IMG/VR virus record: IMGVR_UViG_3300012359_000001
Location: 38,417 to 102,416 of that record
Reading direction: 5' to 3' (one strand)
Source: a virus
Taxonomy: Duplodnaviria; Heunggongvirae; Uroviricota; Caudoviricetes
DNA length: 64,000 nt
This document shows, piece by piece, positions 13,551 to 33,204 of this stretch (position 1 is its first letter; every line of letters begins with the position of its first letter). A program made the position numbers and the translations under genes. The notes under the pieces were generated by a model, which saw only the letters and a program-made list of their open reading frames with translations, did no database searches and was not told where the DNA came from.

Positions 13551-14155
13551 AGTGAGCGGGTTGTGTGTTGTGGTACAGGGGTGTCGATTGCGCGTGCAAT
13601 ACGTCCGAACTTTTGAAACTCTTGTATGAACTTGTGTTCGTGAGGTCCGAGATAGACAATAGCAAGAGGGTACCCAAAGTGTTGAGTAGTGCCATCCGGT
13701 CGATCAAACTTTATGTAACCACGATGGAAACATATAGGGTAGTCATAGAGAGGCTGAAACCATACGCAAGAAGAATTGCCGCCGCAAAGAAGAATTGCTT
13801 GACTTGTACGTCCCTCAACATATTCATGTAAAAGCTTCTGTGTGAATACCTCTTGAAACCCATATGTAGACCCTAAAAGTTCTGGGCGTATACGCCCATA
13901 GGGGGGATTGAGCCACACGTTACCCTTCCATTCCTTACCTAACCCATCATCCTCTTTCGTGTAATAGCGTGCCGCCTTGACCGTTCTATTGGCAAGTTCA
14001 CAGGAGGCAGGGTCTAAATCTATCGAACCCATAACACGCCTTGCGGCATCAACATATGGAGCAGGAGTAAACCACTCATTATCTTTGCTTGCTTGCGCTG
14101 GTAGAGACATGACATCAAACAGTGTTGCCATATCACTCTCTCGAACTATCTGCAT
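13532..14155 (-). CDS. dam: DNA N6-adenine methyltransferase (phage Dam family)
   Basis: WFTPAPYVDAARRVMGSIDLDPAS plus NVWLNPPYG (motif IV NPPY). Confidence 0.75.
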   Translation of the reverse strand: MQIVRESDMATLFDVMSLPAQASKDNEWFTPAPYVDAARRVMGSIDLDPASCELANRTVKAARYYTKEDDGLGKEWKGNVWLNPPYGRIRPELLGSTYGFQEVFTQKLLHEYVEGRTSQAILLCGGNSSCVWFQPLYDYPICFHRGYIKFDRPDGTTQHFGYPLAIVYLGPHEHKFIQEFQKFGRIARAIDTPVPQHTTRSLWEVEA

Positions 14156-17584: not shown

Positions 17585-18895
17585 CTCCGTTCAGGAAGCC
17601 CTACGGCTTCAGCCAAGGGAGGAATGAACGGCTTCCGCAGAAGCATTATTGCGTATTGACGATATCCCTCTAAGTGTGCTATAATACTGACATGAAACAA
17701 ACCATGCTCTTGAAACTGGCACCATCGCCAGAACAACAGAACGCCCTGCTTGAAGTCATGCATGCCTTTAATGATGCGTGTAATATGATCGCGCAAGTGG
17801 CATACGATGAACAACTTGCCAACAAGTTCAAGTTGCAAAAGTTGGTCTATGCCACCGTACGCAAGGACTTCAAGTTGTCGTCTCAGTTGGCAATACGCGC
17901 AATCAGCAAAACGGTGGAGTCCTACAAGCATGATAAGAGCATCAAAGTTTCTTTCCGCCGTGAGGGTGCAATCACCTATGACGAGCGGGTAATGTCCTTC
18001 AAAGGGTTGAATGAAGTCTCCCTGCTCACTCTGCAAGGGCGTGTGTTGGTTCCGTTTCGTATCGGCGGCTATCAGGAGTCTCGACTTGACCAAATCAAGG
18101 GGCAGGCCGATCTTCTCTTGAAGGGAAATACCTTCTATCTTGCAGTCACCCTGGACGTGCCAACTCCTGAACCCTATCAACCGTCTGAGACGTTGGGTGT
18201 TGATCTCGGTATTATCAACCTTGCTACCGCGTCGGATGGTGAGACGTTTAGCGGACAGGCGATTGAGCATACCCGCATACGCATGCTCTCGTTGCGAACA
18301 CGTTTGCAGAAGGTTGGCACGAAGTCCGCAAAGCGCCACCTCAAGAAACTTTCCGGTCATGAGAAACGGTTTCATCGTAACACGAATCATGTGATCTCCA
18401 AACATCTGGTACATAAAGCGAAAGTCAATGGACAAGAACTCGCGATTGAAGACTTAAGGCACATTCGTAAGAATGCAACGGTTCGGAAGTCTCAGCGCAA
18501 TCGACACGCCTCCTGGTCCTTCTGGCAACTGCGCTTCTTCCTCTCCTACAAGGCGGCGCTTGCGGGTGTTCCCTTGCACGTGGTAGACCCGCGTAACACG
18601 TCTCGAACGTGCCATGTGTGCGGACACTGCGAGAAAGCGAACCGCAAGAGTCAAGCCCTGTTCCTCTGTAAACAGTGCGGCATGTCGATGAACGCTGACA
18701 TCAACGCCGCAATAAACATATCTAGGGCTGAAGTCATGCAGCCTATGGCATCGGGACGCGCCCAGGTGCAAGCCGTTGGGTTTTAACTCAGGCGGTCATG
18801 ACTCTTGCGCTCCCTCTCCATACCGTTCAGGAAATTTACCCTTTGCCGTCTCTCTCTGGGGATAATCTGAAATATTCCCTATCAGTGGAGCAGAG
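17585..18895 (+). mobile_element. IS200/IS605-family element carrying only tnpB (IS1341-like). Boundaries approximate.
   Basis: Subterminal hairpins at 17600-17650 (GAAGCC..GGCTTC; GCTTCcgcaGAAGC). tnpB at 17692-18786. The motif CCGTTCAGGAA is repeated near both ends (about 17590 and 18832). Confidence 0.55.
17692..18786 (+). CDS. tnpB: TnpB (IS605 OrfB) RuvC-like RNA-guided nuclease family
   Basis: RuvC-I LGVDLGI, RuvC-II AIEDL, zinc finger CHVCGHC...CKQCG, and RuvC-III NADINAAINI. TATAAT sits 12 nt upstream of the ATG. Confidence 0.85.
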   Translation: MKQTMLLKLAPSPEQQNALLEVMHAFNDACNMIAQVAYDEQLANKFKLQKLVYATVRKDFKLSSQLAIRAISKTVESYKHDKSIKVSFRREGAITYDERVMSFKGLNEVSLLTLQGRVLVPFRIGGYQESRLDQIKGQADLLLKGNTFYLAVTLDVPTPEPYQPSETLGVDLGIINLATASDGETFSGQAIEHTRIRMLSLRTRLQKVGTKSAKRHLKKLSGHEKRFHRNTNHVISKHLVHKAKVNGQELAIEDLRHIRKNATVRKSQRNRHASWSFWQLRFFLSYKAALAGVPLHVVDPRNTSRTCHVCGHCEKANRKSQALFLCKQCGMSMNADINAAINISRAEVMQPMASGRAQVQAVGF

Positions 18896-21396: not shown

Positions 21397-21768
21397 TTAT
21401 TCCTTTGTACTGTCAGGAAAAAATGAGAGGTCTAATGCACATTCCCCATGTCCGATTGAGATGGTATAGGCGATTCTCCCATACCTTCTGTGCGTAGGTT
21501 CACCGATTTGTCTGATTGCATACCCGTCAGTTATTTCTCTGATAACATCCTCTGCTGGTGAGAGGGTTTCAGACCAGGGGATAGCGATGAGATCAAAGTC
21601 TTTTGCAAGGCTCCCATGAACAGCAAGTGCGTACCCATGCCTTTGAAATATCTTTGCCAGTTCAGGGTACAGCGCGGCGGCATACACGGGCGCATAGTTC
21701 GGCTTAATCTGCTCAGCCTCTTTCATCTCATCATTCGTCTCCATAGCCATGTGACGACGCCCAGGCAA
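21397..21768 (-). CDS. Hypothetical protein
   Basis: 123 aa. Overlaps the terL start by 38 nt. Confidence 0.35.
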   Translation of the reverse strand: MPGRRHMAMETNDEMKEAEQIKPNYAPVYAAALYPELAKIFQRHGYALAVHGSLAKDFDLIAIPWSETLSPAEDVIREITDGYAIRQIGEPTHRRYGRIAYTISIGHGECALDLSFFPDSTKE

Positions 21769-23110
21769 ACGGGTCTATCCGTTCAATCTCTGCAATCGTT
21801 GGTATCAGTACGGTTGTTGAGGTGACTTCTTCACCTCTCAATGGGACATTAGGACAAAACTTGTACGCGCATAAGTAGCGTTCACAATCTTTTGCATGAT
21901 CAAACTTCTTCACTGGTGCTTCATTCACTTTTTTACCATTAGAGGTATCCCAGATGTAATTCTCAAATTCAGCTTCAGAGCAAATAGGCAAACTTTGTTT
22001 CTGTAGCACCGGATCGACTTCTACTAGACTATCCCGTAAGAAGTACATGCCTGCTCGTCCGTTGGCATTCGGGCGTAATCTTGCTTGCATTTCTTGTATA
22101 CCCACTGACACCGCTTTGTTTGCAGCCAGGGTGCTATATCCAGTATAGCGTTCAAGCGTAGCGCGGTCTTCAGCATTATGATCGCAAATAATTGCAGATG
22201 GAGGTGGTTCACCCTGTGTTATCTGCATGATCAGTTTTGCGTGGTCTTCTACTAGTGTACCGGTCTTATAAATCTCATGGTAGCGGTACAGTTCGTCGTC
22301 GGGTGACTCGGCCCAGGCTTGCCATACAAACGGGTTGCGAAAGCCAAAGTCTACCACCCAATAACGCGGCCAATCGGCAGGGATATCAAAACGGTTGACA
22401 ATGTGCAGAGCAGGGTTCCATTCCTCCTCATACACCATACCCTCAGAGCTGGCCCAGATACCTTTACGCAACCGTAAGTACAGCACCCCTGATAACGCGT
22501 CTAACGTGGCAAGGTCTTCAGCAGTGCAGGCAGGGTTATCTTCATGCTTGCTATCAAGGAGCAACGTCTTACCCGCGTCACAGCGTTGTTTGAGCCAATG
22601 GTTAGCAGGACCAGGGTTACAGTCTCCAAGCAATTGCTGGTAGGGCATGACGTGATTACGTAGTCGTGATGTGAGGCTTTCCCAATCCACTTGATCCAGT
22701 TCTATCGCCTCTTGCGGATAGATAAAATCCCACTCTGATGACATGATCTTTTGTGGATCATCTAACCCGCCCACGGCTATGATACTCCCGTTGGGATACT
22801 CATATTGCTGATCAGTCACATTGAAGCGTATCAGGCTGCCGAGCCAGCCTTGCGGTAATACCTTCGTCTCATACGTCACCATAGCGGTTTGTGTGAGACT
22901 TTTGCGCGTTTTACGTACCATCAAGCCGCGCATACCCTTATACTTGTCAGCACAGTAATGCAGCTTTTCTATGGCACACCTAGATTTTCCAGTATTTGCC
23001 GCTCCGCACAAAAGCAACTCCCTACGAGCTGAGCGCCATGCTTTAAGAGCACCGCCGAAGGGTTGATACGGGCGCTTCTCTTTGACGTAGGAAGAGGCAA
23101 GAGTGATCAC
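21731..23110 (-). CDS. terL: Terminase large subunit
   Basis: Walker A-like LLCGAANTGKS near the N-terminus. 459 aa with a C-terminal nuclease-like region. The small subunit gene lies immediately upstream. Confidence 0.85.
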   Translation of the reverse strand: MITLASSYVKEKRPYQPFGGALKAWRSARRELLLCGAANTGKSRCAIEKLHYCADKYKGMRGLMVRKTRKSLTQTAMVTYETKVLPQGWLGSLIRFNVTDQQYEYPNGSIIAVGGLDDPQKIMSSEWDFIYPQEAIELDQVDWESLTSRLRNHVMPYQQLLGDCNPGPANHWLKQRCDAGKTLLLDSKHEDNPACTAEDLATLDALSGVLYLRLRKGIWASSEGMVYEEEWNPALHIVNRFDIPADWPRYWVVDFGFRNPFVWQAWAESPDDELYRYHEIYKTGTLVEDHAKLIMQITQGEPPPSAIICDHNAEDRATLERYTGYSTLAANKAVSVGIQEMQARLRPNANGRAGMYFLRDSLVEVDPVLQKQSLPICSEAEFENYIWDTSNGKKVNEAPVKKFDHAKDCERYLCAYKFCPNVPLRGEEVTSTTVLIPTIAEIERIDPFAWASSHGYGDE

Positions 23111-23613
23111 TTCTCAATACCATCCTGAGCAGGGTCAAAGGTGTACTCTTTGGGGAGCGTTTCAACCGTGATATGTTGCCTGTCTCGATATTCACTCATT
23201 CTGGATTTGGCGTGAAAGATCAAAAGAGTGTCGCTTTTCTCTCGATAGGTGAGCGGCTTCCCATCTGCACCATACACCAGTTTGCCTTGCGCAACCACAA
23301 ACCGTTCCTCTCCAAACATGCCACGCCTGAATATCTCAGCACGTATAGCATCGTCAACATCGGCTTTTGCAAGGGCGTACTTCATGTTGAACGCTTCATC
23401 ATGCTCTGCCCACTTGTGAACCGTTGAACGGTCAATGCCAGCAGACATGCAGGCCGCTCGTACATTGCCGTTGGAGGCAAACGCTTTCAAGAATTTCTCT
23501 TGTGTCTCCGCAACTTCTTCTTTGGTGAGTCTTACCCCTTTGCGGCGTACTGATGTACGTACATGGCTACGTGCGTTTTTTGTGTGTGTTGACGTGTTGG
23601 TGTGATCAGACAT
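23107..23613 (-). CDS. terS: Terminase small subunit (HTH)
   Basis: NVRAACMSAGIDRSTVHKWAEHD is an HTH typical of terS. Start set at the ATG at 23613 with a GAGAGGG RBS. Confidence 0.6.
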   Translation of the reverse strand: MSDHTNTSTHTKNARSHVRTSVRRKGVRLTKEEVAETQEKFLKAFASNGNVRAACMSAGIDRSTVHKWAEHDEAFNMKYALAKADVDDAIRAEIFRRGMFGEERFVVAQGKLVYGADGKPLTYREKSDTLLIFHAKSRMSEYRDRQHITVETLPKEYTFDPAQDGIEK

Positions 23614-23675: not shown

Positions 23676-24104
23676 TTAAAATGAGAATGGATGCTGTATC
23701 TGACGAGGGGCAAACACTATCTCCTCTGGCACCTCGAAGAGTGTTTGCCTCCCTCGATAGGGCACAAATGGTAATGCGAGTGGGTGGGACAGTACCCACC
23801 CGTAGAGGCCGCAAAACCAGGGACTTGCGTTCTCTGTTACAATATCCACCAGATCGACAATTCCAATGATCCCGCCTGTCGGGTGGTGCTCACTCCTGAA
23901 TTGTACAAAGGTTTTTTCATCAATAATCCGCGCTATTTGCTCGTATCCTTCAGGATCAATCGTCTTACTGGCGTGTATCAACAACGGTCCTCGGTAGGGA
24001 GTAGTCCAGGTACGGTTCTCTATATGCTTCCACCCCTTTATGATGACGGAAGCCCACGGCTGACGGACGCTAATACAGCGAATACAGCGAATACGCATAC
24101 ACAC
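23676..24104 (-). CDS. ASCH domain protein
   Basis: ISVRQPWASVIIKGWKHIENRTW...GPLLIHASK matches the ASCH pattern. The N-terminus is encoded by a 9-bp tandem repeat. Confidence 0.55.
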   Translation of the reverse strand: MCMRIRCIRCISVRQPWASVIIKGWKHIENRTWTTPYRGPLLIHASKTIDPEGYEQIARIIDEKTFVQFRSEHHPTGGIIGIVDLVDIVTENASPWFCGLYGWVLSHPLALPFVPYRGRQTLFEVPEEIVFAPRQIQHPFSF

Positions 24105-24179: not shown

Positions 24180-25355
24180 CTAACGGGCAGCGTCCATTTG
24201 CATAACTACCGCCTCAAACCCAGGAACACGGTCAAGCGTGAGAGAGGATGCATGATGTTTCGTTGTCCAGGCACAATAGAGCATCGACGCAGGTGCAACA
24301 CTACACACATCAATCAGGTATTGGTAGTTGTAGATACCTTCCAACTCCTTGCCCTCAGTCGCCGCACTCACCAACACACTCATTGGCTCAACCATCCCAT
24401 CCCGTTTTGCTTTCACGTTGAGCGTTCCGTCATGTGGATACAGCCGAACGATGTTGCTATTGTCTTTCGCAATCGGCGCAATAGCAAGCAACGCAGCCTT
24501 GAGTGATGTACTTTCGACAAGAAGCGATGTCTCAAGATCGTCTGTTTTAGGAATAATCTGCTCGTAGCGCGGATAATTCGCCTCAATTTCACGAATATGG
24601 GAGGTGAGTATTCCGCAAGTGAGTGTCGCAAAAGCAGAGGAGAGAGAAGACAACGTGATCTCCCCTTGTTTGGGCATCCGTTTTACCATCTCAAACAAGG
24701 ATCGGGCAGGGAGTAATAGATCACGATCCCAACTCCCCGCACCTACAAGGGTTTCGCGCATCAAGTGAAGACGATGTTGATCACAGGCTACAAGAGTAAG
24801 TACGTCTTGACGTAAACGGAAGAGTATTCCACTAAAAACAGGGCGGGTATCATCCTCTGCCGCCGCAGGGTAGACTGCGTTCACCATCTGCCGAAAGGTA
24901 GCAACTGGCAGACTCACACACGACTCGGGCAGACGGTTCTCCTCTTTCACGGATGGCTCAAAGGGATACTCATCTGCATCAATCGTGGGAAGTGAGACGG
25001 TCATGTCTGCCCCGCTAATGAGCACACTATCCTCTTGAGCGACAAGCGTAAGCGTGGATTTCTTCAAGGGTTTGATAATATCTAGTAACTCTTTATAGTT
25101 GACAGTGAACACTCCATCGCTCTGTACGTAGGCGGCAAGTTCTACTTTTGAGTAGACTTCCAGGTTGGTCGCGGCAATCGTAAGAAACGGATGACGTGCC
25201 TCGATCTTGACATTTGTAAGAATAGGGAGCGTTGAACGTTTTGCAAGTGCAGATGAGATGCTAACAAGCGCATCTGCCAGCACTTTTTGATCAATCGTAA
25301 AAGTTGTAGGGGATGCGACAGGGAGAACAGTCTCTTTCATCGTAACTGTAGTCAT
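24180..25355 (-). CDS. dnaN: DNA polymerase III beta subunit (sliding clamp)
   Basis: FTIDQKVLADALVSISSALAKRSTLPILTNVKIEA...LTIAATNLEV and an overall three-domain clamp pattern. 391 aa. Confidence 0.85.
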   Translation of the reverse strand: MTTVTMKETVLPVASPTTFTIDQKVLADALVSISSALAKRSTLPILTNVKIEARHPFLTIAATNLEVYSKVELAAYVQSDGVFTVNYKELLDIIKPLKKSTLTLVAQEDSVLISGADMTVSLPTIDADEYPFEPSVKEENRLPESCVSLPVATFRQMVNAVYPAAAEDDTRPVFSGILFRLRQDVLTLVACDQHRLHLMRETLVGAGSWDRDLLLPARSLFEMVKRMPKQGEITLSSLSSAFATLTCGILTSHIREIEANYPRYEQIIPKTDDLETSLLVESTSLKAALLAIAPIAKDNSNIVRLYPHDGTLNVKAKRDGMVEPMSVLVSAATEGKELEGIYNYQYLIDVCSVAPASMLYCAWTTKHHASSLTLDRVPGFEAVVMQMDAAR

Positions 25356-25405: not shown

Positions 25406-25511
25406 AGTATATCATACGTACGTATATGTGTCAAGTGGCTTTACAGGCGGTTTTTGCGGTACTTTGAAAAACCATTTAGAGGTTGACAAACGTACGTATA
25501 TGTGGTAAGGT
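25406..25511. promoter_or_regulatory. Divergent promoter pair, each with the same palindromic operator (ACGTACGTATATGTG) in the spacer
   Basis: Minus strand: TTGACA (rc of 25429-25434), 17-nt spacer, TATACT (rc of 25406-25411). Plus strand: TTGACA 25483-25488, 17-nt spacer, TAAGGT 25506-25511. Operator copies at 25416-25430 and 25490-25504. Confidence 0.5.
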
Positions 25512-25532: not shown

Positions 25533-25721
25533 ATGAAAACAGGGCGAACCAAAGTCTATGCCGACGCACAGCCATTTGATATAAAAAATCTTTCTGCCGA
25601 TCTGAAGAAGAAGTTTGAGGAAGGGCAAGTTCGATACAAAGAAAGGACAGGGCAAGAAATGACGAGACGGGGATATCTTGAGCATTTGCTCAGAACACAC
25701 CCCGAATTGCAGAAGGACTAA
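25533..25721 (+). CDS. Hypothetical small protein
   Basis: 62 aa with a strong GAGAGGAGAGG RBS, downstream of the plus-strand promoter. Confidence 0.4.
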   Translation: MKTGRTKVYADAQPFDIKNLSADLKKKFEEGQVRYKERTGQEMTRRGYLEHLLRTHPELQKD

Positions 25722-26419
25722 ATTCGTATACGTCCGTGGTCATGCCAAAGGTGCTGTCGCTTCCAAGCGTGATTACGGACTGGTTCACGATACATCCTCC
25801 CTTTGAAAGACACGACGCCCTCACGCGCCTGCTCATCAAAGTAGTAGTCCTCGCTATCCCACGGTGTACGCCCCTCACGCTCAGGTGCCAGCAGTAACTC
25901 ACCTTCCACCAACTTCTGCATACAGGATGACTGTCCGACGCAAAAATGTCCGATTCGACGCTTTCCGTAAACCGCTAATGACTTGAACGCTAGCCATAAC
26001 CCTGCGGCAGTATCCCCAATGTAAAAGGGTAGATAAGGACCATATTCCAGCCAACTTCGGCATTGTGCCAGCATATCAAAGGACACTTCCCCTACTTCAC
26101 TGCGTAGTGACACCCACACACATTGCATTTCATCGGCTAATTGCGCAGGGTCAACGTCCCACTTTTCTAGCGTCTGTGGGCGAAAGTTATCAAGCACGAT
26201 ATCAGGATAATCCAGGGGATGCAGATCAAGAAGCGAGAGGATATTCTTCTCTTCCATCTGCTTACCCGCATTAATCCATTCCCACAACTCATCACCCTGG
26301 CGCAAGCCAAGTATCGGATCTTTGCCAGTATGCCACTTTGTAACTTCGCATCCCTGCTCGGCCAAGATCATGCCAGCGTAGGCAACGCTTACATAATTGC
26401 CCAATTCAAGAACGCGCAT
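25718..26419 (-). CDS. CoA-transferase family III (CaiB/BaiF)-like protein, short form
   Basis: N-terminus MRVLELGNYVSVAYAGMILAEQGCEVTKWHTGKD aligns with the CaiB/BaiF N-terminal fold (kVLD..G..aGP....LA..GA.ViKiE). It is only 233 aa, against about 400 aa for canonical enzymes. Confidence 0.45.
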   Translation of the reverse strand: MRVLELGNYVSVAYAGMILAEQGCEVTKWHTGKDPILGLRQGDELWEWINAGKQMEEKNILSLLDLHPLDYPDIVLDNFRPQTLEKWDVDPAQLADEMQCVWVSLRSEVGEVSFDMLAQCRSWLEYGPYLPFYIGDTAAGLWLAFKSLAVYGKRRIGHFCVGQSSCMQKLVEGELLLAPEREGRTPWDSEDYYFDEQAREGVVSFKGRMYREPVRNHAWKRQHLWHDHGRIRI

Positions 26420-26756
26420 ACTGCAACACCTCCTGTACCTGATTATCAGGAGTACAGTATACGACGGTCACACCACTGAACACTTCTTCCTGACGATAGG
26501 CAATCACAATACACGTATCTCCCACTTCACCAAGACGAGCGCCGCCGCCATTGAGAGTAAACACACCCTCCTCAGATGGCAGGGCATATGTTACCCACCT
26601 GTTGCCATTCGAGAGGTTGACAATATGTACTTGCTCATAGGGATCGATGCCTGCAATCTTAAGCAAAGAGGCATCGATACTCGCCGAGCCATGATACCTC
26701 AAACTTTTATCGGTTACGTACAGATTATGGAGTTTTGCACTTACAAACGTTTTCAC
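26406..26756 (-). CDS. panD: Aspartate 1-decarboxylase (pyruvoyl-dependent)
   Basis: MKTFVSAKLHNLYVTDKSLRYHG|SASID...NGNRWVTYAL...NGGGARLGEVGD aligns along the full length of PanD. The Gly-Ser self-cleavage site and the Lys9, His11, Arg54, Thr57 and Tyr58 equivalents are present. Confidence 0.8.
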   Translation of the reverse strand: MKTFVSAKLHNLYVTDKSLRYHGSASIDASLLKIAGIDPYEQVHIVNLSNGNRWVTYALPSEEGVFTLNGGGARLGEVGDTCIVIAYRQEEVFSGVTVVYCTPDNQVQEVLQYARS

Positions 26757-26915
26757 GTAACAACCTTCTACTATTGTTCAATGGCTCTACATGTTGCGAG
26801 ATACTAGAATTCACCAACCATCGCGGGAGGAAAGACGCATGGATTGTGTCACTTCCTCAAAAAGTTGTCGTAGCATCTCCTGAGCCACTTTACCACACAG
26901 AGAACAAATATTCTC

Positions 26916-28193
26916 CTACTTGATGGGTGGAGCGTACTCAAAAGTAGCAGTTCCCAGGCGGCGGTACTGTGCTTGCCGCCCTCGCAAAACCGGATCGGCA
27001 GTTTTTGAGCTAGAGAGTGATGCCACATTCGTGTAAGAACCATGATGACTCTTCTGCATATTCAGAGCATCGCGCTTCTTGTCTAAATGGTCGTCTAGGC
27101 AGACTAGACGACCAGAGTTACTGTGATACAACATTTTCTGGTTCTTCTTCCACCTCGACGACTCTGACGCAGGCGATGGACCCGATGCATCCACGCCACA
27201 TTGCTTCCAGCGAGGGCTACGTGAGTAGTATGCAATCATAGCAGGATGGGCAACCGTATTATGGTAGCGATAGCCACGCTCATACAAATACTGGCCGAGC
27301 CAATCATCAAAACGTCCACCTAAACCTAAACCTTGATAATCAGGACGAACGACTAAGCGGTGCCCTTGCTTGATATTTCTGGTTTTCGGATGAGGAAGGT
27401 GCAAATAGGAAGAGAACGCTACGCACTCGCCTCCAATGAAACCAGCAAAGCATTGGGCCGCAGTATGGAGTACTCCACTTAGATAGTGATACTTGCTAAA
27501 CAGTCTCCATGCGGTTTTATCACACTGATAGATGCGGAACTCCAATTCTGGATGTCGTTGAAGTAACCTCCAATTGAAGGTATTAGTATGCGGCTGGTAC
27601 ACCCAATCAGGTTGTAACCAATCAAGCACATCATAATGGCACGTTACCGCGACCAATTGTTTTCCCGATTTGCGCACACTTTTCTGGATGCTGTGCGAAG
27701 CAACCTGCGCTACCTGCCGATCGACGACGCTGGTAAACTCATCAAGGACAATGAGATTCTCTGGTTCTAGTAACGCACGAGCCGCAGTGACACGGAACTG
27801 TTCACCCATGCTGAGTACAGCGTAGGGACGCATCCAGTTAGGAGGAGAACCAAAGCCGACACCGCACAACGATCCGGTGATATCCTTGATCGAAAGTCCT
27901 TTAGGCATTGCATCAACCACACTTTTATCAACGGGCCAGTCATCATAACCGATACGAACACAATCACCATAGAGAGCACGCGCAACCGTTGTTTTGCCAC
28001 TACCAGAGGGTCCAACAATAAGCCCGATGGACCAATCCTTTTGGTTGAGCGGCAAGTCAATATCCCAAGACTCAATAGATCGTTCTGAAATCGGGATATC
28101 GAATAAACTCTCTAATTGTTGTATACGTGCCGTTCGTTGCACGGCACATTCTTTCACGATATGCGCTTGCATTACAGTACCAGTGCCCGACAT
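26916..28193 (-). CDS. ABC-type ATPase nucleotide-binding domain fused to a GNAT-like acyltransferase domain
   Basis: Walker A GPSGSGKTT, signature-like LSMGEQ, Walker B LIVLDEFTSVVD, H-loop VTCHYD. C-terminal HRLVVRPDYQGLGLGGRF resembles GNAT motif A. Confidence 0.55.
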   Translation of the reverse strand: MSGTGTVMQAHIVKECAVQRTARIQQLESLFDIPISERSIESWDIDLPLNQKDWSIGLIVGPSGSGKTTVARALYGDCVRIGYDDWPVDKSVVDAMPKGLSIKDITGSLCGVGFGSPPNWMRPYAVLSMGEQFRVTAARALLEPENLIVLDEFTSVVDRQVAQVASHSIQKSVRKSGKQLVAVTCHYDVLDWLQPDWVYQPHTNTFNWRLLQRHPELEFRIYQCDKTAWRLFSKYHYLSGVLHTAAQCFAGFIGGECVAFSSYLHLPHPKTRNIKQGHRLVVRPDYQGLGLGGRFDDWLGQYLYERGYRYHNTVAHPAMIAYYSRSPRWKQCGVDASGPSPASESSRWKKNQKMLYHSNSGRLVCLDDHLDKKRDALNMQKSHHGSYTNVASLSSSKTADPVLRGRQAQYRRLGTATFEYAPPIK

Positions 28194-28783
28194 GTAATCC
28201 CCTCTCCCTGAAAGCGATCTAAGAGCACCAATTGCTCTTGCTCATTCTGGCAATCAATGATAATACCCCATCGCTCGGCAACGTCTGTTTGTTCAGCATT
28301 CCCCTCCTCTGGTAACTTGTCAGCATTTCTCCCTATCACCTCATCACCCAAACCCTCCAACATTTGCCGCAATGTCTCATCATCGCTACCAAGTGTCACC
28401 AGATCGTACCCTGCGTTTTGTTGTTCGGTAAGCAATTCTGCTAAAAGCGCATCATCGTCTACAGCATCCGCACTCAGGAGGTTATCGGCTACAATATAGG
28501 CATTGCATTCTAAATCAGAAAATGTTGGAGGCAGGATCGTTGCGTGAAGTTGGCTCATTTTGAGTTGTTGCGCCGCTTCGACCACACCATGACCTGCAAG
28601 GATCGTGTATGACCCATTCCCCTCATCCCTGCACACAATATCGCGCATCTGCCCGAAGCGTTCAAGACTCATCTTGATTTTATGTACTTGTTCGGGTGGA
28701 TGCGAACGGAAGTTCCGCTCAGATGGGTAGAGGGCAGCAACGGACACCTGATAATGCTCTTTGACAATCTCTTGCTCGATCAT
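28172..28783 (-). CDS. ParB-like nuclease domain protein
   Basis: LYPSERNFRSHPPEQVHKIKMSLERFGQMRDIVCR...YTILAGHGVVEAAQQL is a ParB/Srx fold pattern. Confidence 0.55.
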   Translation of the reverse strand: MIEQEIVKEHYQVSVAALYPSERNFRSHPPEQVHKIKMSLERFGQMRDIVCRDEGNGSYTILAGHGVVEAAQQLKMSQLHATILPPTFSDLECNAYIVADNLLSADAVDDDALLAELLTEQQNAGYDLVTLGSDDETLRQMLEGLGDEVIGRNADKLPEEGNAEQTDVAERWGIIIDCQNEQEQLVLLDRFQGEGITCRALVL

Positions 28784-28786
28784 ACC

Positions 28787-29005
28787 CTACTCCTGCTTTG
28801 CTGGTTCCTCTGTCGCTGGTTGCTGTTCTTCATCTCCCACAACACGCTTCACTTGTCTGCGTAATGTCTCAAAATGCGGCATGATCTGTTTTGCCTCTTG
28901 ATGCGCGTACTCTCCCATACCTGCAAACATATTGTGTGCCTCACGATAGAGGATATCTAATCGTGCATGCAATCGTTTCAATTGTTGTTTTAACTCTTCA
29001 TTCAT
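28787..29005 (-). CDS. Hypothetical protein
   Basis: 72-aa ORF, predicted coiled. Confidence 0.3.
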   Translation of the reverse strand: MNEELKQQLKRLHARLDILYREAHNMFAGMGEYAHQEAKQIMPHFETLRRQVKRVVGDEEQQPATEEPAKQE

Positions 29006-29358
29006 ACTGTATCCTGTCGTGTTGCCCGTAACTCTACAAGTAACGCTTTGATATCACATATTTCTTTCTCTGCTAGTCGGTTCACCATTGCATCATGCTC
29101 CACCGTACACCTGTCTCGCTCAGCCTGCTTATTCTCTGACATCAGGACAAAAATACTTAGGAATATCGCCTCAAGACTTACGGATAAGGTCAAGAACGAG
29201 AACGGGTACGCATCGAACCGCCAGAGTGTGAATGTGTTCAACACAATCCAGAAGAGGAACACAAAGAAATTAATTGCTAGAAATGCAATCGATCCACAAA
29301 AGACAGCAATCCATTCAGCAATCCGCTCACTCTTACTCACCTCCGGTGCCTTAATCAT
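29002..29358 (-). CDS. DUF1003-like membrane protein
   Basis: Two TM segments and ...FDAYPFSFLTLSVSLEAIFLSIFVLMSENKQAERDR match the DUF1003 pattern. Confidence 0.45.
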   Translation of the reverse strand: MIKAPEVSKSERIAEWIAVFCGSIAFLAINFFVFLFWIVLNTFTLWRFDAYPFSFLTLSVSLEAIFLSIFVLMSENKQAERDRCTVEHDAMVNRLAEKEICDIKALLVELRATRQDTV

Positions 29359-30144: not shown

Positions 30145-30615
30145 TCATGGGCAAGCTGTAGGGAAATACCTGCTTTTTTTTGCAAGTCGCTCAGGCGTAA
30201 TCTCTGGGTAAAGTTTCATGATGACAGAGACTCTACTTCCTAATTCACCTTTTATTAATGGTGAGCTATTTTTAGCCTGCCCTGTTTTTGATTTGCTTTC
30301 AAAAATGGACTGAAAATCTTTGTAAGTGAAAGACTTTGCAACATCCAGATTGAATAGACGCACCCCCAAGGAGAGGTAGTAGCGTATCCAATATTGCTCT
30401 CTTCCTTTAGCTTTCTCTATTGTTTCCACTTGCTCAAGAGTACGCATGATAAGCATGAAGCTTTCACTCTTTAGTTCCTGTATCCACTCATTCTTGTCGA
30501 TATTATTCCCGCTACACTGCACATGCTGAGAGAAGCGTTTATACACATCATCAGTAATGCCAACATAGCGTACAACATCGTTGCGAGGATCGATCAGGAC
30601 GTAAACAGCAATCAT
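30145..30615 (-). CDS. GIY-YIG homing endonuclease
   Basis: VYVLIDPRNDVVRYVGITDDVYKRFSQH is the GIY-YIG motif. Confidence 0.75.
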   Translation of the reverse strand: MIAVYVLIDPRNDVVRYVGITDDVYKRFSQHVQCSGNNIDKNEWIQELKSESFMLIMRTLEQVETIEKAKGREQYWIRYYLSLGVRLFNLDVAKSFTYKDFQSIFESKSKTGQAKNSSPLIKGELGSRVSVIMKLYPEITPERLAKKSRYFPTACP

Positions 30616-30927: not shown

Positions 30928-31998
30928 TTACGCCCTCCGCAATGCGCGGCGCTGTCCGATCTGGTCTGCAAGAACGGCATACCCGCGAGCATTCGCTTTC
31001 TCAGGATCGGCTATCTGCACAGCGTTCTTGATGATTTTTTGTAGCGATGAATGGAAGTAGTACGCGCCGCCGCCGCAATGCAGCACTGATTTAAAGCTAG
31101 AAGCTACTTTGCCGCTCTGGTTACTCCACACACTAGAGATTTTTGCATTCTTCTCATCACCAGTTTCCTTGATAGCGGCTTTGACCCACTGCTGCAAATC
31201 TATCCCTGAAACTTGTATTCCATCAGCATACAGTTCTGGATAGGCACCAATATTGATACTTGCACGAAGGACAGCCTGCATTTCTGGCTCTGAGAGTTCA
31301 CGCCCGTATTTCGCCTCAAACTTTGTGCTCAACCGATAGAGGGCATTATTGACGCCGATCTCGAAACTATCGCACTGCTCAGTATGTGCCTTGTGTCCAT
31401 CAAAGCGAAGCATGTTGGTCGTGAGCGATCCGCTATCAACTATTCCTATCGTACTGGTCTTATCAAAACCGTGATAGATAGCAGCTCCCGCGCCCTCCAT
31501 GAACACCTTGACCGTCTCGACGCTGATCGCCATATCACGCCCATTGAACTGATAGCGATACACGCCGGTTAACTCTTCAACGATCTTGCTAGACTGTTCC
31601 TGGTAAGCACGCAAAGGAACGCCCATAACCAGATTGATGGAGAACTCCTGTATCCCAGGCCATATCTGCGCGGCAGCCAGCGAAGCAAAGCACATGATAG
31701 AAACCTGAGTACGTTTGTTGTGATAGCGGTGCTTGTCTTTAAAATCTGAAGTTGGGTTAAGTCCCTGCTCAGCAAGATCAGACAAAAAGTACACTGATCC
31801 GTCATATTCCACCATCAACTCGTTAGGATTGATGGTTTCACCGAGTCCACTGCCAGATTTCAGGGATTGATACTTCTTTAAGTTCCCTTCCGAGATGAGG
31901 CTTGACGCGTCGAACTCCAATAATCTGCCAGTATCCGTCATAACAGCGATATTTGTACGCTGATTGCCCCTGTCGAAGCCTAAATTCAATGTTTTCAT
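30928..31998 (-). CDS. parM: Actin-like ATPase, ParM/StbA family
   Basis: Phosphate-1 LGFDRGNQRTNIAV, phosphate-2 IVDSGSLTTN, adenosine HCGGGAY. Confidence 0.7.
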   Translation of the reverse strand: MKTLNLGFDRGNQRTNIAVMTDTGRLLEFDASSLISEGNLKKYQSLKSGSGLGETINPNELMVEYDGSVYFLSDLAEQGLNPTSDFKDKHRYHNKRTQVSIMCFASLAAAQIWPGIQEFSINLVMGVPLRAYQEQSSKIVEELTGVYRYQFNGRDMAISVETVKVFMEGAGAAIYHGFDKTSTIGIVDSGSLTTNMLRFDGHKAHTEQCDSFEIGVNNALYRLSTKFEAKYGRELSEPEMQAVLRASINIGAYPELYADGIQVSGIDLQQWVKAAIKETGDEKNAKISSVWSNQSGKVASSFKSVLHCGGGAYYFHSSLQKIIKNAVQIADPEKANARGYAVLADQIGQRRALRRA

Positions 31999-32634: not shown

Positions 32635-33204
32635 TTACGCTCTTCTCTTGAGTCCACATTGCTCTAGAACATAGGCGGCGTGGCGACGATAGCGGCTATT
32701 GGTGATACCCATTTTCGCCAGGGCATCATTCACATTGCCAACTTTCCGGTACCAATATTGCAGGTCATCATGTAAATTTTCTGGTAAAAACTTGTCATCT
32801 CCTCTAGGGATATACCCATCACGAGAAGAGTCGGGTCTATTTTTCACTTCCAGTGCTGCAACGGCTTGAATGGCTATTTGACGAGAAGCCTGCACTTGCA
32901 ACTTTTTAATCTCTTTGAGTGCTAATCTATGGGTAGCATTTGTAAGAGGTTCACTTAACGTCTCAAAATGTTTAATCCAATAAGCCTCTCGCTCAAGGGA
33001 AAATTGATAGTTTCCAACTTGTTCCAGTGTCTCCATAATGACCATGCGATTGAGCGCACGCAGTTCAAAAATCCAGGCATTCTTTACAAAACTGCTGCCC
33101 TCTCCGTTAATATGCTGAGTAAATCGCTGGTAGACATCAGTTGTTTGACCGACATAGTGAACGGTGTAGTCTCGCGGATCTACCAGCGCGTAAATGGTAT
33201 ACAT
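32635..33204 (-). CDS. GIY-YIG homing endonuclease (second copy)
   Basis: IYALVDPRDYTVHYVGQTTDVYQRFTQH. The C-terminal module ...SRYRRHAAYVLEQCGLKRRA is shared with the upstream ATPase. Confidence 0.75.
   Translation of the reverse strand: MYTIYALVDPRDYTVHYVGQTTDVYQRFTQHINGEGSSFVKNAWIFELRALNRMVIMETLEQVGNYQFSLEREAYWIKHFETLSEPLTNATHRLALKEIKKLQVQASRQIAIQAVAALEVKNRPDSSRDGYIPRGDDKFLPENLHDDLQYWYRKVGNVNDALAKMGITNSRYRRHAAYVLEQCGLKRRA

Follow-up and report, generated by a model that had tools for sequence, protein, structure and literature searches.

This locus raises the question of whether four adjacent phage genes, each with a likely role in handling acyl groups or DNA, form a functional unit and, if so, which molecule they modify. 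The window, which is the whole 64,000-nucleotide stretch analysed, is part of a ~102-kb viral contig. An earlier note, made from the sequence, had proposed that the four genes build an acyl group from aspartate and CoA and transfer it to a macromolecule, possibly DNA.

The locus and its proteins

An ORF check of the window places all four genes on the minus strand at exactly the coordinates first proposed (25718-28783; Table 1), flanked as described by the sliding clamp gene (DnaN) and a membrane protein (DUF1003). Two gene pairs overlap: ParB-like with the start of ABC-GNAT (22 nt), and the stop of PanD with the CoA-transferase-like gene (14 nt). A gap of 159 nt separates ABC-GNAT from PanD. 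The four domain calls were right (Pfam and PHROG matches, with which the structure models agree). Two features that bear on the target, the ASCH gene and the terminase context, had escaped the earlier note. The terminase genes (21731-23613) provide the context of a 'ParB-terminase locus' and lie outside the enzyme set. A Dam gene is also present in the window.

Table 1. Positions in the window of the four genes, their domains and neighbouring features
Feature	Position	Strand	Length or residues	Remarks
Dam	13535-14227			
Terminase large subunit	21731-23110	-		Terminase_3 (Pfam, source contig)
Terminase small subunit	23107-23613	-		Sf6_terminase, weak (Pfam, source contig)
ASCH (PUA-like) domain protein	23676-24104	-		Pfam ASCH, 25.9 bits
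DnaN	24180-25355			Flank of four-gene cluster
CoA-transferase III-like	25718-26419	-	233 aa	
PanD	26406-26756	-	116 aa	
ABC-ATPase + GNAT fusion	26916-28193	-	425 aa	
GNAT domain	27195-27551	-	~aa 215-333	
ABC domain	27579-28172	-	~aa 8-205	
ParB-like	28172-28783	-	203 aa	
DUF1003 membrane protein	29002-29358			Flank of four-gene cluster

PanD matches PF02261 (99.4 bits, E 1.5e-28) and solved PanD structures in the PDB (E 5e-15), while its TIGR00223 score (79.6 bits) is below the NCBIfam equivalog cut-off of 106. It has all the E. coli catalytic residues (K9, H11, Y22, G24-S25, R54, T57, Y58, N72; G24-S25 is the self-cleavage site of the E. coli enzyme). Catalytic residues are 91-100% conserved among 34 module PanDs, which carry W55 and a GGGA motif compared with F55 and GAAA in E. 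coli. We take it to be a pyruvoyl-type aspartate 1-decarboxylase, predicted to be active, and propose it as the source of β-alanine.

The CoA-transferase-like protein matches PF02515 (35.5 bits; cut-off 23.3) over residues 1-96 only. It belongs to a family of ~230-aa proteins (at least 251 clusters) in which G135-D136-T137 and N78, part of an ENFRP-like motif, are invariant. The top Foldseek PDB matches of its structure model (pLDDT 91.9) are all family III CoA-transferases or racemases (Rv3272, Frc, MCR, CaiB/BaiF, SUGCT), with a query TM of 0.56-0.61 and a target TM of 0.34-0.41; solved members have 344-428 aa compared with 233 aa here. D136 aligns, with weak alignment statistics, to the catalytic D169 of E. 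coli CaiB. The protein is truncated and comprises the large domain only. In family III dimers the small domain and C-terminal part complete the active site; lacking both, the protein may not work as a conventional transferase. Family III also includes racemases using the equivalent Asp. Alignment (by eye) shows no His at the racemase catalytic His position and a nearly invariant Arg at 106. On chromosomes of Actinobacteria, this short CoA-transferase is found beside a non-homologous PLP-dependent amino-acid decarboxylase, outside any GNAT or DNA context. This pairing supports a chemical coupling of decarboxylase and CoA-transferase. We propose that the phage protein is a β-alanine:acyl-CoA CoA-transferase; β-alanyl-CoA is a real metabolite, the product of a β-alanine CoA-transferase (PMC10266731).

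The ABC-GNAT fusion matches phrog_11143 (E 5e-95), ABC_tran (36.5 bits) and Acetyltransf_1 (25.2 bits). Invariant in its ABC domain are the Walker A motif GPSGSGKT (K67), the signature LSxGEQ (S128, G130, E131), Walker B with the catalytic Glu (D151, E152), the D-loop (S155, D158) and the H-loop (H186). In the GNAT domain, motif A (Q287-G288-x-G290) is invariant in the family alignment and the canonical Q-x-x-G-x-G CoA-binding motif is retained. The C-terminal tail includes a ~55-aa low-confidence insertion and a conserved F-E-Y-x-P end. The ABC domain resembles the nucleotide-binding domains of transporters, ABCE1 and ABC-F rather than the DNA-handling Rad50/SMC/UvrA types, and the best structural matches of the GNAT domain are small-molecule acetyltransferases. 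Family comparisons rejected its membership of the Mom family. CoA-transferase-linked GNATs differ from others at seven positions between aa 277 and 328 (for example, N312 occurs in 95% of them against 3% of others), a contrast confounded by relatedness. From general GNAT topology rather than model mapping, the seven positions would presumably fall near the β4/α3/β5/α4 cleft. Judged by their residues, the ABC-GNAT, PanD and CoA-transferase-like enzymes look active.

For the ParB-like protein, the Pfam ParB_N score (21.9 bits) is below the cut-off of 26.3, but PHROG ParB families and a methyltransferase ParB domain are matched at E 1e-23 to 6e-24. It consists of a ParB/Srx N-terminal domain and a conserved small C-terminal domain, with no recognisable HTH in its 203 aa, and has Val in place of Arg in the family consensus aGH.R. 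The earlier label 'ParB-like nuclease' is retained in its first part; nothing points to nuclease activity. Phage DNA methyltransferases (phrog_498; PADLOC MTase_II) carry this ParB type at their N-terminus. Its closest tested analogue is a ParB activator required by a phage DNA-modifying enzyme, a thymine dioxygenase, on double-stranded DNA (PMC13229309).

The ASCH gene, the second one downstream of the cluster, immediately precedes the small terminase gene, and its product scores above the Pfam cut-off of 21.2. The octapeptide G-x-K-x-x-E-x-R is present as GWKHIENR; across 18 ASCH proteins linked to the module, its K, E and R show conservation of at least 80%. The motif residues are reported to be essential for N4-acetylcytidine (ac4C) amidohydrolysis (bioRxiv 10.64898/2026.02.27.708502; YqfB, PMC6972931). 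Those ASCH proteins that have been tested remove the acyl group from ac4C in tRNA or nucleosides, not in DNA (same sources). The phage protein is probably a reader or eraser of an acylated base.

Conservation of the gene order

The identical gene order is found in Rhodococcus phage Jace, in an Actinomyces urogenitalis prophage and, beyond these, in ~26 distinct loci of viruses or prophages. In Jace the module corresponds to gp85-88; all four proteins are matched, and the three with tblastn identities share 52-58% with those of the window. ABC-GNAT is directly upstream in 31 of 38 unique CoA-transferase-like loci (those with at least 1.7 kb upstream), with PanD intervening in 26 of the 31. Among viral loci with sufficient flank, ABC-GNAT is present in 31/31. 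The PanD and CoA-transferase-like genes always lie between ABC-GNAT and ASCH or terminase, with overlapping frames. Recurrence of this order at dozens of independent loci goes far beyond what chance would give, and the four genes are a conserved functional unit. The gene-neighbourhood check suggested at the outset therefore finds the cluster conserved elsewhere, and the proposal does not fall on that ground. Six unique loci include the CoA-transferase-like and ABC-GNAT genes with no PanD; by these, either PanD can be dispensed with or an acid other than β-alanine may sometimes be the substrate.

The ParB + ABC-GNAT core is itself very common, and only ~2-3% of such loci carry the PanD + short CoA-transferase add-on. 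ParB of this type is present in 70/80 ABC-GNAT-anchored viral loci and is fused to ABC-GNAT in a single chain in 11 of the best 150 representative clusters; in one representative (P0445), ABC-GNAT is joined to TerL. As the neighbouring genes overlap, part of these fusions could be artefacts of frameshifts or of gene calling. At one locus (L075), an unrelated family I CoA-transferase follows ABC-GNAT. In other phages the next genes downstream of ABC-GNAT are mostly small or large terminases, and some have no recognisable small terminase between ABC-GNAT and TerL. In 14/48 unique loci, ASCH and the CoA-transferase-like gene are no more than 1.5 kb apart; among ABC-GNAT loci, ASCH occurs in 18/80.

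Part of this has been anticipated. Aravind's group (Iyer et al., 2013) independently predicted by computation that ParB + ABC-GNAT upstream of terminase acylates DNA bases (PMC7824862, PMC4738411), and the concept of a 'ParB-terminase large subunit locus' has been published (PMC4738411). Tenacibaculum phage pT24, which they name as an exemplar, is also a match of a window protein. In the literature searched we found no experimental study of the core, no report of a modified base in any ABC-GNAT carrier phage and no description of the add-on. The suggestion that the whole module was undescribed must thus be narrowed: the core had been predicted, and the new part is the PanD + short CoA-transferase add-on to it.

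A candidate acylation system and its alternatives

The best reading remains that an acyl group made from aspartate and CoA is transferred to a macromolecule, most likely DNA. Specifically, we suggest, with a probability of roughly 0.45, that the cluster encodes a system for post-replicative acylation of nucleic acid, with its own supply of an unusual acyl donor, acting on the phage's own DNA, most likely at the replication/packaging junction just before packaging. PanD would convert L-aspartate to β-alanine. The CoA-transferase, whose fold and catalytic Asp are seen and for which gene linkage suggests β-alanine as substrate, would move CoA onto it from host acetyl-, succinyl- or propionyl-CoA, giving β-alanyl-CoA. 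The GNAT would then attach β-alanyl to a DNA base through an exocyclic amine. The ASCH link would favour N4 of cytosine, as would the example of TmcA, in which a GNAT coupled to an ATPase acetylates cytidine in tRNA; the Mom precedent would instead suggest N6 of adenine. The ABC domain would dimerise on ATP and, with the ParB-like partner, open double-stranded DNA bases to the GNAT, a role modelled on the ParB that activates phage thymine dioxygenases. The ASCH protein might read or trim the acylated base. Most ABC-GNAT systems, without the PanD and CoA-transferase steps, presumably use a host donor such as acetyl-CoA.

Acyl-CoA is the predicted donor because of the GNAT Q-x-x-G-x-G motif, the family I CoA-transferase at L075, the signature of linked GNATs and the known existence of β-alanyl-CoA. 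DNA is most likely the target because of the frequency of ParB and its fusions, the position upstream of terminase, the ASCH motif, the Mom and ParB precedents and the Aravind prediction. The analogy with Mom, drawn in the earlier note, is good for a GNAT acting on double-stranded DNA, which is established by experiment, but fails for donor type and family membership: Mom takes glycine from Gly-tRNA, not an acyl-CoA (PMC13219725), and the window GNAT is outside its family. Points against the DNA acylation reading are the ABC domain type, the absence of the GHxR-box Arg from the window ParB, the incomplete CoA-transferase, the PanD-less loci and the ASCH precedents on RNA and nucleosides.

With the same donor chemistry (β-alanyl- or another acyl-CoA), the GNAT might have a target other than DNA: RNA (host tRNA, as a TmcA-like N4-acylcytidine), a phage or host protein (terminase, portal, ParB itself or RNA polymerase) or a small molecule. 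Characterised GNATs act mostly on proteins and small molecules, and phage GNATs acetylating host RNA polymerase are known (PMC7824862); the substrates of tested ASCH proteins, the GNAT's structural matches and an ABC domain closest to types of which some act on ribosomes point the same way. We nevertheless consider this unlikely, given the nearly constant and sometimes fused ParB partner, the ParB type shared with DNA methyltransferases, and the fixed position beside terminase, with one TerL fusion. A different doubt concerns the short CoA-transferase-like protein, which might serve as a subunit that binds or hands off CoA or acyl-CoA, or as an enzyme of racemase or lyase type, the acyl group moved then being acetyl or further derived (for example, from acryloyl-CoA) rather than β-alanyl. 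Its short length, N-terminal Pfam match and low target TM, the racemases that use the equivalent Asp and the six PanD-less loci are consistent with this. It is made improbable by the invariant GDT aligned to the CaiB catalytic Asp, the invariant N78, the Arg at the racemase His position and the pairing with two unrelated decarboxylase types.

Alternatively, ParB + ABC-GNAT could be a packaging or partition accessory (packaging-site recognition, DNA condensation or terminase regulation by acetylation) and the add-on a hitch-hiking metabolic cassette that boosts host pools of β-alanine and CoA independently of the GNAT. The module is always beside terminase, in some phages with no recognisable small terminase before TerL, the classical role of ParB proteins is DNA segregation, and ~97% of ABC-GNAT loci have no PanD. 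Against this, in viral contigs the add-on never occurs without ABC-GNAT (31/31) and is confined, with overlapping frames, to one position; linked GNATs have their own signature, strict conservation of the catalytic motif argues for real acyl transfer, and β-alanine by itself, without PanB, PanC and PanE, does not raise CoA levels. We find this scenario still less probable. Finally, an aspartyl or other α-amino-acid-derived group might be attached to DNA first and then decarboxylated there by the PanD-like enzyme. On-DNA decarboxylation of appended amino acids reportedly occurs in thymidine hypermodification (Lee et al., PNAS 2018, NAR 2022), and the sub-cut-off TIGR00223 score, with W55 and GGGA, indicates a divergent PanD clade. 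However, the residues that bind and decarboxylate free L-aspartate (K9, R54, T57, Y58, N72) are kept, PanD has a small active-site pocket that is buried where subunits meet, α-aminoacyl-CoAs are chemically unstable, and the chromosomal pairing with a PLP-dependent decarboxylase suggests that the CoA-transferase acts on a free ω-amino acid. This is the least probable of the alternatives.

Jace is a cultured phage, and the DNA acylation reading can therefore be tested directly. If it is true, the product would place a primary amine in the DNA groove, where it should block host nucleases and neutralise charge during packaging.

Gene content and layout of the cluster

The four open reading frames that the earlier note had placed at 25718-28783 are real, lie at these positions and are all on the minus strand. 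Read along the coding strand, the order is ParB, ABC-GNAT (an ABC ATPase domain fused to a GNAT domain), PanD, the CoA-transferase-like gene, a small ORF on the opposite strand, DnaN, ASCH, small terminase and large terminase. The ParB and ABC-GNAT genes overlap by 22 nt and the PanD and CoA-transferase-like genes by 14 nt, with a gap of 159 nt between ABC-GNAT and PanD. The two terminase genes (TerS and TerL) are situated about 2-4 kb downstream of the module, and the viral contig containing the window is roughly 102 kb long. The Dam-family gene that had been mentioned elsewhere in the phage is also present. At the DNA level, comparison of the module region with GenBank phages gave only one match, of 77 nt and at chance level.

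Features in and around the cluster (window coordinates)
Feature	Position	Strand	Length	Remarks
Dam-family N6-adenine methyltransferase	13535-14227	-		PF05869 E 1.9e-11; NPPY motif; adjoins portal gene
TnpB/IS605 OrfB (Cas12f-like)	17692-18786	+		opposite-strand insertion inside terminase-portal block
ASCH gene	23676-24104	-		between dnaN and small terminase gene; PF04266 25.9 bits (cut-off 21.2)
Near-consensus sigma-70-like promoter	25406-25434	-		TTGACA, 17 nt, TG-TATACT; 11/12 matches
CoA-transferase-like gene	25718-26419	-	233 aa	
PanD gene	26406-26756	-	116 aa	
ABC-GNAT gene	26916-28193	-	425 aa	
ParB-like gene	28172-28783	-	203 aa	
GIY-YIG nuclease gene	30145-30615	-		just upstream of module
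ParM/Alp7A-like actin gene	30928-31998	-		just upstream of module
GIY-YIG nuclease gene	32635-33204	-		just upstream of module
GmrSD_N/DUF262-domain protein, phage-encoded	57715-58800	+		

A scan for promoters and terminators returned no more candidates than in shuffled sequence, and the sole notable site was the sigma-70-like promoter upstream of dnaN. Since this promoter-like site falls between the CoA-transferase-like gene and dnaN, it suggests separate transcription units for the four-gene cluster and dnaN. Among the other genes of the window, the GmrSD_N/DUF262 protein carries the ParB-superfamily NTPase domain of type IV restriction enzymes that attack modified DNA, and it could act as an excluder of other modified phages.

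ABC-GNAT belongs to phrog_11143 ('unknown function'; E 5e-95, positions 3-335 of 357). Its ABC domain is nearest to transporter, ABCE1 and ABC-F domains rather than to Rad50 or SMC. The Walker A, signature, Walker B/Glu, D-loop and H-loop motifs are invariant and are intact in the window protein, and the GNAT domain keeps the canonical Q-x-x-G-x-G acyl-CoA motif (pyrophosphate-binding Q/R-x-x-G-x-G/A). The tail (aa ~335-425, window 26916-27190) contains an insertion of roughly 55 residues with pLDDT below 55, which occurs elsewhere only in two close relatives (P0122 and P0123) among 39 aligned sequences; the terminal F-E-Y-x-P motif is conserved family-wide. Some homologues depart from this architecture (P-numbers denote homologous proteins and L-numbers viral or genome loci). 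In P0436 (715 aa) the Walker A region of the ABC domain is interrupted by an intein (Hint and LAGLIDADG homing endonuclease), and P0374 (807 aa) and P0488 (755 aa) have large insertions at other places in this domain. In a homologue linked to PanD and the CoA-transferase (L047 6443-7675), the region C-terminal to the ABC domain is matched by neither Pfam nor the window GNAT, and the transferase domain may here have diverged strongly or been replaced.

The window ParB scores below the cut-off of the Pfam ParB N-terminal family (PF02195, 21.9 bits against 26.3). It matches PHROG ParB families (E 1e-23), the ParB part of phage methyltransferases (E 6e-24) and the N-terminus of PADLOC MTase_II (E 5e-15); helix-turn-helix families are absent among its Pfam and PHROG matches. 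In the G-x-x-R box the family consensus aGH.R is replaced by AGHGV (28580-28600, residues 62-68), with Val for Arg, and the protein has thus lost the arginine that is conserved in this nucleotide-binding box. ParB, ABC and GNAT domains are joined in a single chain in 11 of the 150 best representative clusters (P0373, P0382, P0384, P0385, P0388, P0389, P0390, P0434, P0454, P0457 and P0492; E 5e-22 to 3e-53 with a ParB HMM built here). In addition, P0445 (856 aa) combines ABC-GNAT and a terminase large subunit (phrog_38, E 4e-43) in one chain. Because the genes overlap, part of the fusions may be frameshift or gene-calling artefacts.

PanD is a clear member of PF02261 (99.4 bits, cut-off 25; residues 3-106 on profile positions 4-113 of 115). 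It falls below the NCBIfam equivalog cut-off (TIGR00223, 79.6 bits against 106) which, judged from sequence, sets it in a divergent, distinct clade specific to the phage module. Its identity is 57.5% to gp87 of the Rhodococcus phage Jace and 36-43% to the remaining PanD matches in the phage collection; a single-sequence PanD search of viral contigs gave no matches. Residues K9, H11, Y22, the G24-S25 self-cleavage site, R54, T57, Y58 and N72 are all kept (E. coli numbering). Among 34 PanDs of equivalent modules these catalytic and substrate residues are 91-100% conserved. PanD also aligns with solved PanD structures, and the alignment with M. tuberculosis PanD (2c45) agrees on the key residues.

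The CoA-transferase-like protein matches PF02515 (35.5 bits, cut-off 23.3) over residues 1-96 only (profile positions 4-109 of 366). Its AlphaFold model has a pLDDT of 91.9, and Foldseek ranks 1-19 in the PDB are all family III CoA-transferases/racemases (E 6e-9 to 3e-5, query TM 0.55-0.61, 201-229 columns); normalised to the PDB family III targets, the TM is 0.34-0.41. The protein has the large-domain fold and the (E/D)NFRP motif common to family III (CaiB, Frc, SUGCT, BaiF; PF02515). Those enzymes are two-domain chains of ~350-430 aa that pair as an interlocked dimer, whereas this protein has only 233 aa and ends, after residue 172, in a short β-sheet and a single helix instead. It is a truncated form, without the C-terminal segment and the small domain that the classical dimer possesses. 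This short form is a family in its own right, with at least 251 clusters of ~230 residues (range ~225-240 aa). A G-D-T-x-x-G-L motif containing D136 and an (E/D)NFRP-like motif are invariant in 32 homologues; in hhalign, D136 falls on D169, the catalytic residue of E. coli CaiB, but weakly (E 0.042, with a single sequence as template). The substrates of CaiB, ω-(trimethyl)amino acids, are chemically close to β-alanine.

One homologue, P0102 (L006 843-2057, 404 aa), has an ABC domain joined straight to a CoA-transferase-like domain and lacks both GNAT and PanD. It was considered as a Rosetta-stone fusion and dropped: because of its junction (...ACHH running directly into ELGNYV...) and its occurrence on a single contig of 4.6x coverage, it has most probably arisen by deletion or in assembly.

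The ASCH gene was overlooked in the first reading and accompanies the module in many loci. Its motif GWKHIENR corresponds to G-x-K-x-x-E-x-R, of which the K, E and R show a conservation of 80% or more across 18 ASCH proteins linked to the module. ASCH proteins with this motif hydrolyse N4-acetylcytidine (YqfB, PMC6972931; bioRxiv 10.64898/2026.02.27.708502). The window protein is thus a predicted N4-acylcytosine amidohydrolase with predicted catalytic Lys, Glu and Arg.

Distribution of the core and of its extended variant

Conservation of the cluster, which the earlier note had set as a check, is borne out: the same arrangement is found in Jace and in most loci of the CoA-transferase-like family. 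Among 50,697 GenBank phage records, only Jace carries relatives of all four proteins. Its gp85-88 are in the same order as in the window, and for three of them tblastn gave identities of 52-58% with the window proteins; the host of Jace is R. erythropolis RIA 643. Further loci were obtained by an alignment-based search for the CoA-transferase-like family in viral and genome collections, with neighbours scored by phmmer. ABC-GNAT is immediately upstream in 31 of the 38 unique loci with at least 1.7 kb of upstream sequence, and is present at all viral loci with enough flank. PanD lies between the two genes in 26 of these 31 loci. The variant also occurs in cultured lysogens, as prophages of Actinomyces urogenitalis, Alsobacter metallidurans and Nonomuraea; the A. 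urogenitalis prophage has the order SSB ... ParB, ABC-GNAT, PanD, CoA-transferase-like, ASCH, DUF932, TerL and portal.

A two-GNAT arrangement is found at L022-L028 and L033 (for example, L022 869-4135), with the order ParB, ABC-GNAT1, PanD, CoA-transferase-like and ABC-GNAT2. In such loci the second GNAT might have another base as its target, or the amine left free on the first adduct.

The ABC-GNAT family itself is far larger. Clustered at 90% identity, it still counts at least 7,517 clusters, against about 251 for the CoA-transferase-like family, and 1,030 representative clusters (50% identity) at E <= 1e-30. Carriers of the core include jumbo phages and prophages of major pathogens; Lactococcus P335, Pseudomonas Komp_PAO1_1 and Burkholderia phiE255 have it in its plain form. 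A count over 80 ABC-GNAT-anchored viral loci, scored with stop-to-stop ORFs, gave ParB in 70, ASCH in 18, and PanD with the CoA-transferase-like gene in only 2. Most of the genes that directly follow ABC-GNAT code for terminase subunits. From these counts and the size of the ABC-GNAT family, the window carries a rare, enlarged form of a two-gene core that is itself very common. The PADLOC defence-system libraries gave only generic P-loop and ParB-domain matches, and the module therefore corresponds to no known defence system.

Relation to known base-modifying systems

The idea that a ParB and ABC-ATPase/GNAT pair acylates DNA reportedly goes back to Iyer, Zhang, Burroughs and Aravind (NAR 2013), who predicted it computationally. 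It has been restated by Iyer et al. (Viruses 2021, PMC7824862; Bioessays 2016, PMC4738411), and the same group defined the concept of the 'ParB-terminase large subunit locus' (PMC4738411). A named example of the ABC-ATPase/GNAT system, Tenacibaculum phage pT24 (PMC7824862), is matched by the window ABC-GNAT (hit H88). The window has the same two-domain protein (phrog_11143), a ParB partner, the position upstream of the terminase and the ASCH association, and is a member of this system. It differs in the insertion of PanD and a truncated family III CoA-transferase between ABC-GNAT and ASCH. The earlier note had proposed that the cluster builds an acyl or aminoacyl group from aspartate and CoA for transfer to a macromolecule, and had taken the module to be undescribed. 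The theme of acyl chemistry stands. The claim of novelty was overstated: the ParB and ABC-GNAT core had been predicted earlier, and it is the combination with PanD and the CoA-transferase that is new within the literature searched. In that literature, whose reach excluded Iyer 2013 and Krishnan 2020, no paper joins PanD, CoA-transferase, ParB, GNAT and phage, and no experimental study of the ABC-GNAT family was found.

The analogy with Mom of phage Mu, which had also been drawn, is outdated in the form then given. Mom (PF25680) has a GNAT fold and glycylates N6 of adenine in dsDNA from Gly-tRNAGly; the product isomerises on the base to N6-carbamoylmethyl-adenine (PMC13219725). Mom and the window ABC-GNAT are both phage-encoded GNAT-fold proteins expressed with late or packaging genes, and in the Mu-like phage phiE255 the ABC-GNAT gene follows the tail-fibre genes, resembling the location of mom in Mu. 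The chemistry proposed for the window would be that of Mom, namely aminoacylation of an exocyclic base amine in dsDNA. However, Mom lacks three features of the window GNAT, namely the canonical CoA-binding motif, the ABC ATPase domain and the ParB partner, and for the window GNAT the predicted donor is an acyl-CoA made in situ rather than a charged tRNA. Membership of the Mom family was rejected, since there is no PF25680 match at E up to 0.1 (Pfam) and hhalign against a 24-member Mom alignment gives a probability of 0.8% (E 0.067, 50 columns). In Mom, the H58-Y59 dyad, R111, S124 and R151 are functionally important (PMC13219725). The invariant H236-Y237 of ABC-GNAT falls on H58-Y59 in two non-significant hhalign runs, which do not align S124 and R151.

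TmcA and NAT10 (Kre33), in which a GNAT is coupled to an ATPase, make the N4-acetylcytidine of tRNA and rRNA and pair with ASCH amidohydrolases (PMC6972931; bioRxiv 10.64898/2026.02.27.708502). They resemble the window system in the fusion of a P-loop NTPase to a GNAT for the exocyclic amine of a base, and in the association of a GNAT writer with an ASCH eraser or reader. The TmcA ATPase is helicase-like whereas that of the window is an ABC domain, and the context is tRNA for TmcA but ParB and terminase for the window. Pfam finds only ABC_tran and Acetyltransf_1/7 and no TmcA-type domains; membership of this family was thus rejected and the likeness is functional only.

A parallel for the ParB partner comes from the 5mYOX thymine dioxygenases, which need a short ParB-like activator on dsDNA and for which the conserved NTP-binding residues of this activator are dispensable (O'Toole et al., PNAS 2026, PMC13229309). 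Both ParBs are short, have no obvious DNA-binding domain and are encoded next to a base-modifying enzyme (a predicted one in the window), which is an Fe/2OG dioxygenase in the 5mYOX systems and ABC-GNAT in the window. As the NTP-binding residues of the activator are dispensable, a window ParB without the consensus Arg would fit this pattern.

The product proposed for the window also resembles the thymidine hypermodifications in being a small amino-acid-derived group with a free amine, in requiring a decarboxylation step and in being post-replicative. Those known, reportedly from the work of Lee et al. (PNAS 2018 and NAR 2022), include 5-NeOmdU, 5-NedU, α-putrescinyl-T and α-glutamyl-T. They are made from 5-hydroxymethyl-dU through a kinase, aGPT-Pplase transferases and PLP or radical-SAM enzymes. 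The window module carries no genes of this pathway, and the proposed link is an amide on an exocyclic amine rather than a link at C5.

Acyl donor, target and rival explanations

In the reading that we prefer, PanD would convert aspartate to β-alanine, a step with support at the level of sequence. The remaining steps are suggested by gene linkage and analogy. The short CoA-transferase would convert β-alanine to β-alanyl-CoA at the expense of a host acyl-CoA, and the GNAT domain would move the β-alanyl group to the exocyclic amine of a base in phage dsDNA. Access to the base would be provided by ATP-driven dimerisation of the ABC domain and by the ParB partner, and ASCH would read or trim the mark. 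We give this whole chain a probability of roughly 0.45.

Four observations, independent of one another, link the accessory genes to the making of the donor. One comes from Actinobacteria chromosomes, in which the same short CoA-transferase-like gene occurs in a non-phage operon (L052 6763-10265; L054; L056 6574-10256; L060 6595-10151). There it is flanked by a PLP-dependent group II decarboxylase (PF00282) and an aldehyde dehydrogenase (PF00171), with neither ParB nor GNAT nearby, in what may be an uncharacterised ω-amino-acid/CoA pathway. As two unrelated types of decarboxylase are thus found beside the short CoA-transferase, we argue that its acid substrate is a decarboxylation product. Another comes from other phages, in some of which ABC-GNAT is directly followed by the gene of a different enzyme, namely a family I CoA-transferase of unrelated fold (L075 4708-5274; PF01144, E 2e-34), a short-chain dehydrogenase (L125 2966-3856) or a formyltransferase (PF00551; phiE255 gp30, L002 5128-5742). 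This variety points to a donor or tailoring module that can be exchanged. The GNAT domain itself carries a signature, with seven positions (aa 277-328) that differ between CoA-transferase-linked and unlinked proteins (for example, N312 is present in 95% against 3%). In the linked proteins the seven read G277, L280, W298, L303, N312, Y323 and R328. From general GNAT topology, we presume that these positions surround the β4/α3/β5/α4 acyl-CoA cleft; shared ancestry could also have produced the contrast.

The last observation is chemical. Because β-alanyl-CoA is the aminoacyl-CoA least prone to self-cyclise, and because no tRNA is known to be charged with β-alanine, a CoA route would be the obvious way to activate this amino acid. 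The compound is a genuine, isolable thioester formed by CoA transfer, as by the β-alanine CoA-transferase of Anaerotignum propionicum (PMC10266731), whose reaction is the one proposed for the window protein.

The evidence for DNA as the target is circumstantial, and consists of the near-constant ParB, the fusions to ParB and TerL, the constant position beside the terminase and the linked ASCH gene. A target other than DNA, such as is modified by the TmcA and NAT10 enzymes, is unlikely given these associations. The truncation of the CoA-transferase-like protein leaves room for another explanation, that it is not a transferase or that it handles a different acyl group. We consider this quite unlikely; the invariant D136 and (E/D)NFRP-like motifs speak for a family III enzyme, and the chromosomal operons for an acid produced by decarboxylation.

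The position next to the terminase might also be expected of a packaging accessory that happens to sit beside an unrelated metabolic cassette. This has a low probability in our view, and the four observations described here connect the cassette to the supply of a donor. Decarboxylation might instead take place on the DNA, with PanD acting after transfer. Of the alternatives this is the most improbable, as PanD looks like a working decarboxylase for free aspartate.

Returning to the β-alanyl-CoA route, its most specific form is a tentative one and is more doubtful than the chain as a whole. It is that phages with the variant contain a new DNA hypermodification, an N-(β-alanyl) (3-aminopropanoyl) base in the form of N4-β-alanyl-dC or N6-β-alanyl-dA. 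The phage would then produce its own donor from aspartate; installation of the group would be the work of a packaging-coupled, ATP-driven ABC/ParB machine, and its proofreading or erasure that of a dedicated ASCH amidohydrolase. A Mom-like rearrangement on the base could convert N6-β-alanyl-dA to N6-(2-carbamoylethyl)-dA.

The finding is a new variant of a purely predicted system, in which the core is known by prediction and the donor add-on is new. ParB and ABC-GNAT are among the most widespread predicted phage DNA-modification systems still without a known product, and in the variant with PanD and the CoA-transferase the genes themselves, for the first time, name a particular acyl donor. A concrete donor implies a concrete mass shift, of +71 Da on dC or dA. 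As a cultured phage (Jace) and cultured lysogens carry the variant, a prediction now thirteen years old becomes directly testable.

If the proposal is true, this would be the first CoA-thioester-dependent aminoacylation of DNA and a new class of DNA hypermodification, with an amide-linked aminoacyl group derived from a CoA thioester. It would give a new role to ABC ATPases and to truncated family III CoA-transferases, and GNAT and ASCH would possibly form a writer/eraser pair for N-acyl marks on DNA. Such marks would be of practical interest in labelling DNA enzymatically and in making DNA that resists restriction and CRISPR. Extended to the thousands of plain ParB-ABC-GNAT loci, among them those in prophages of Streptococcus pyogenes, Porphyromonas gingivalis and Burkholderia, the proposal would have them mark phage DNA with N-acetyl (or other acyl) groups.
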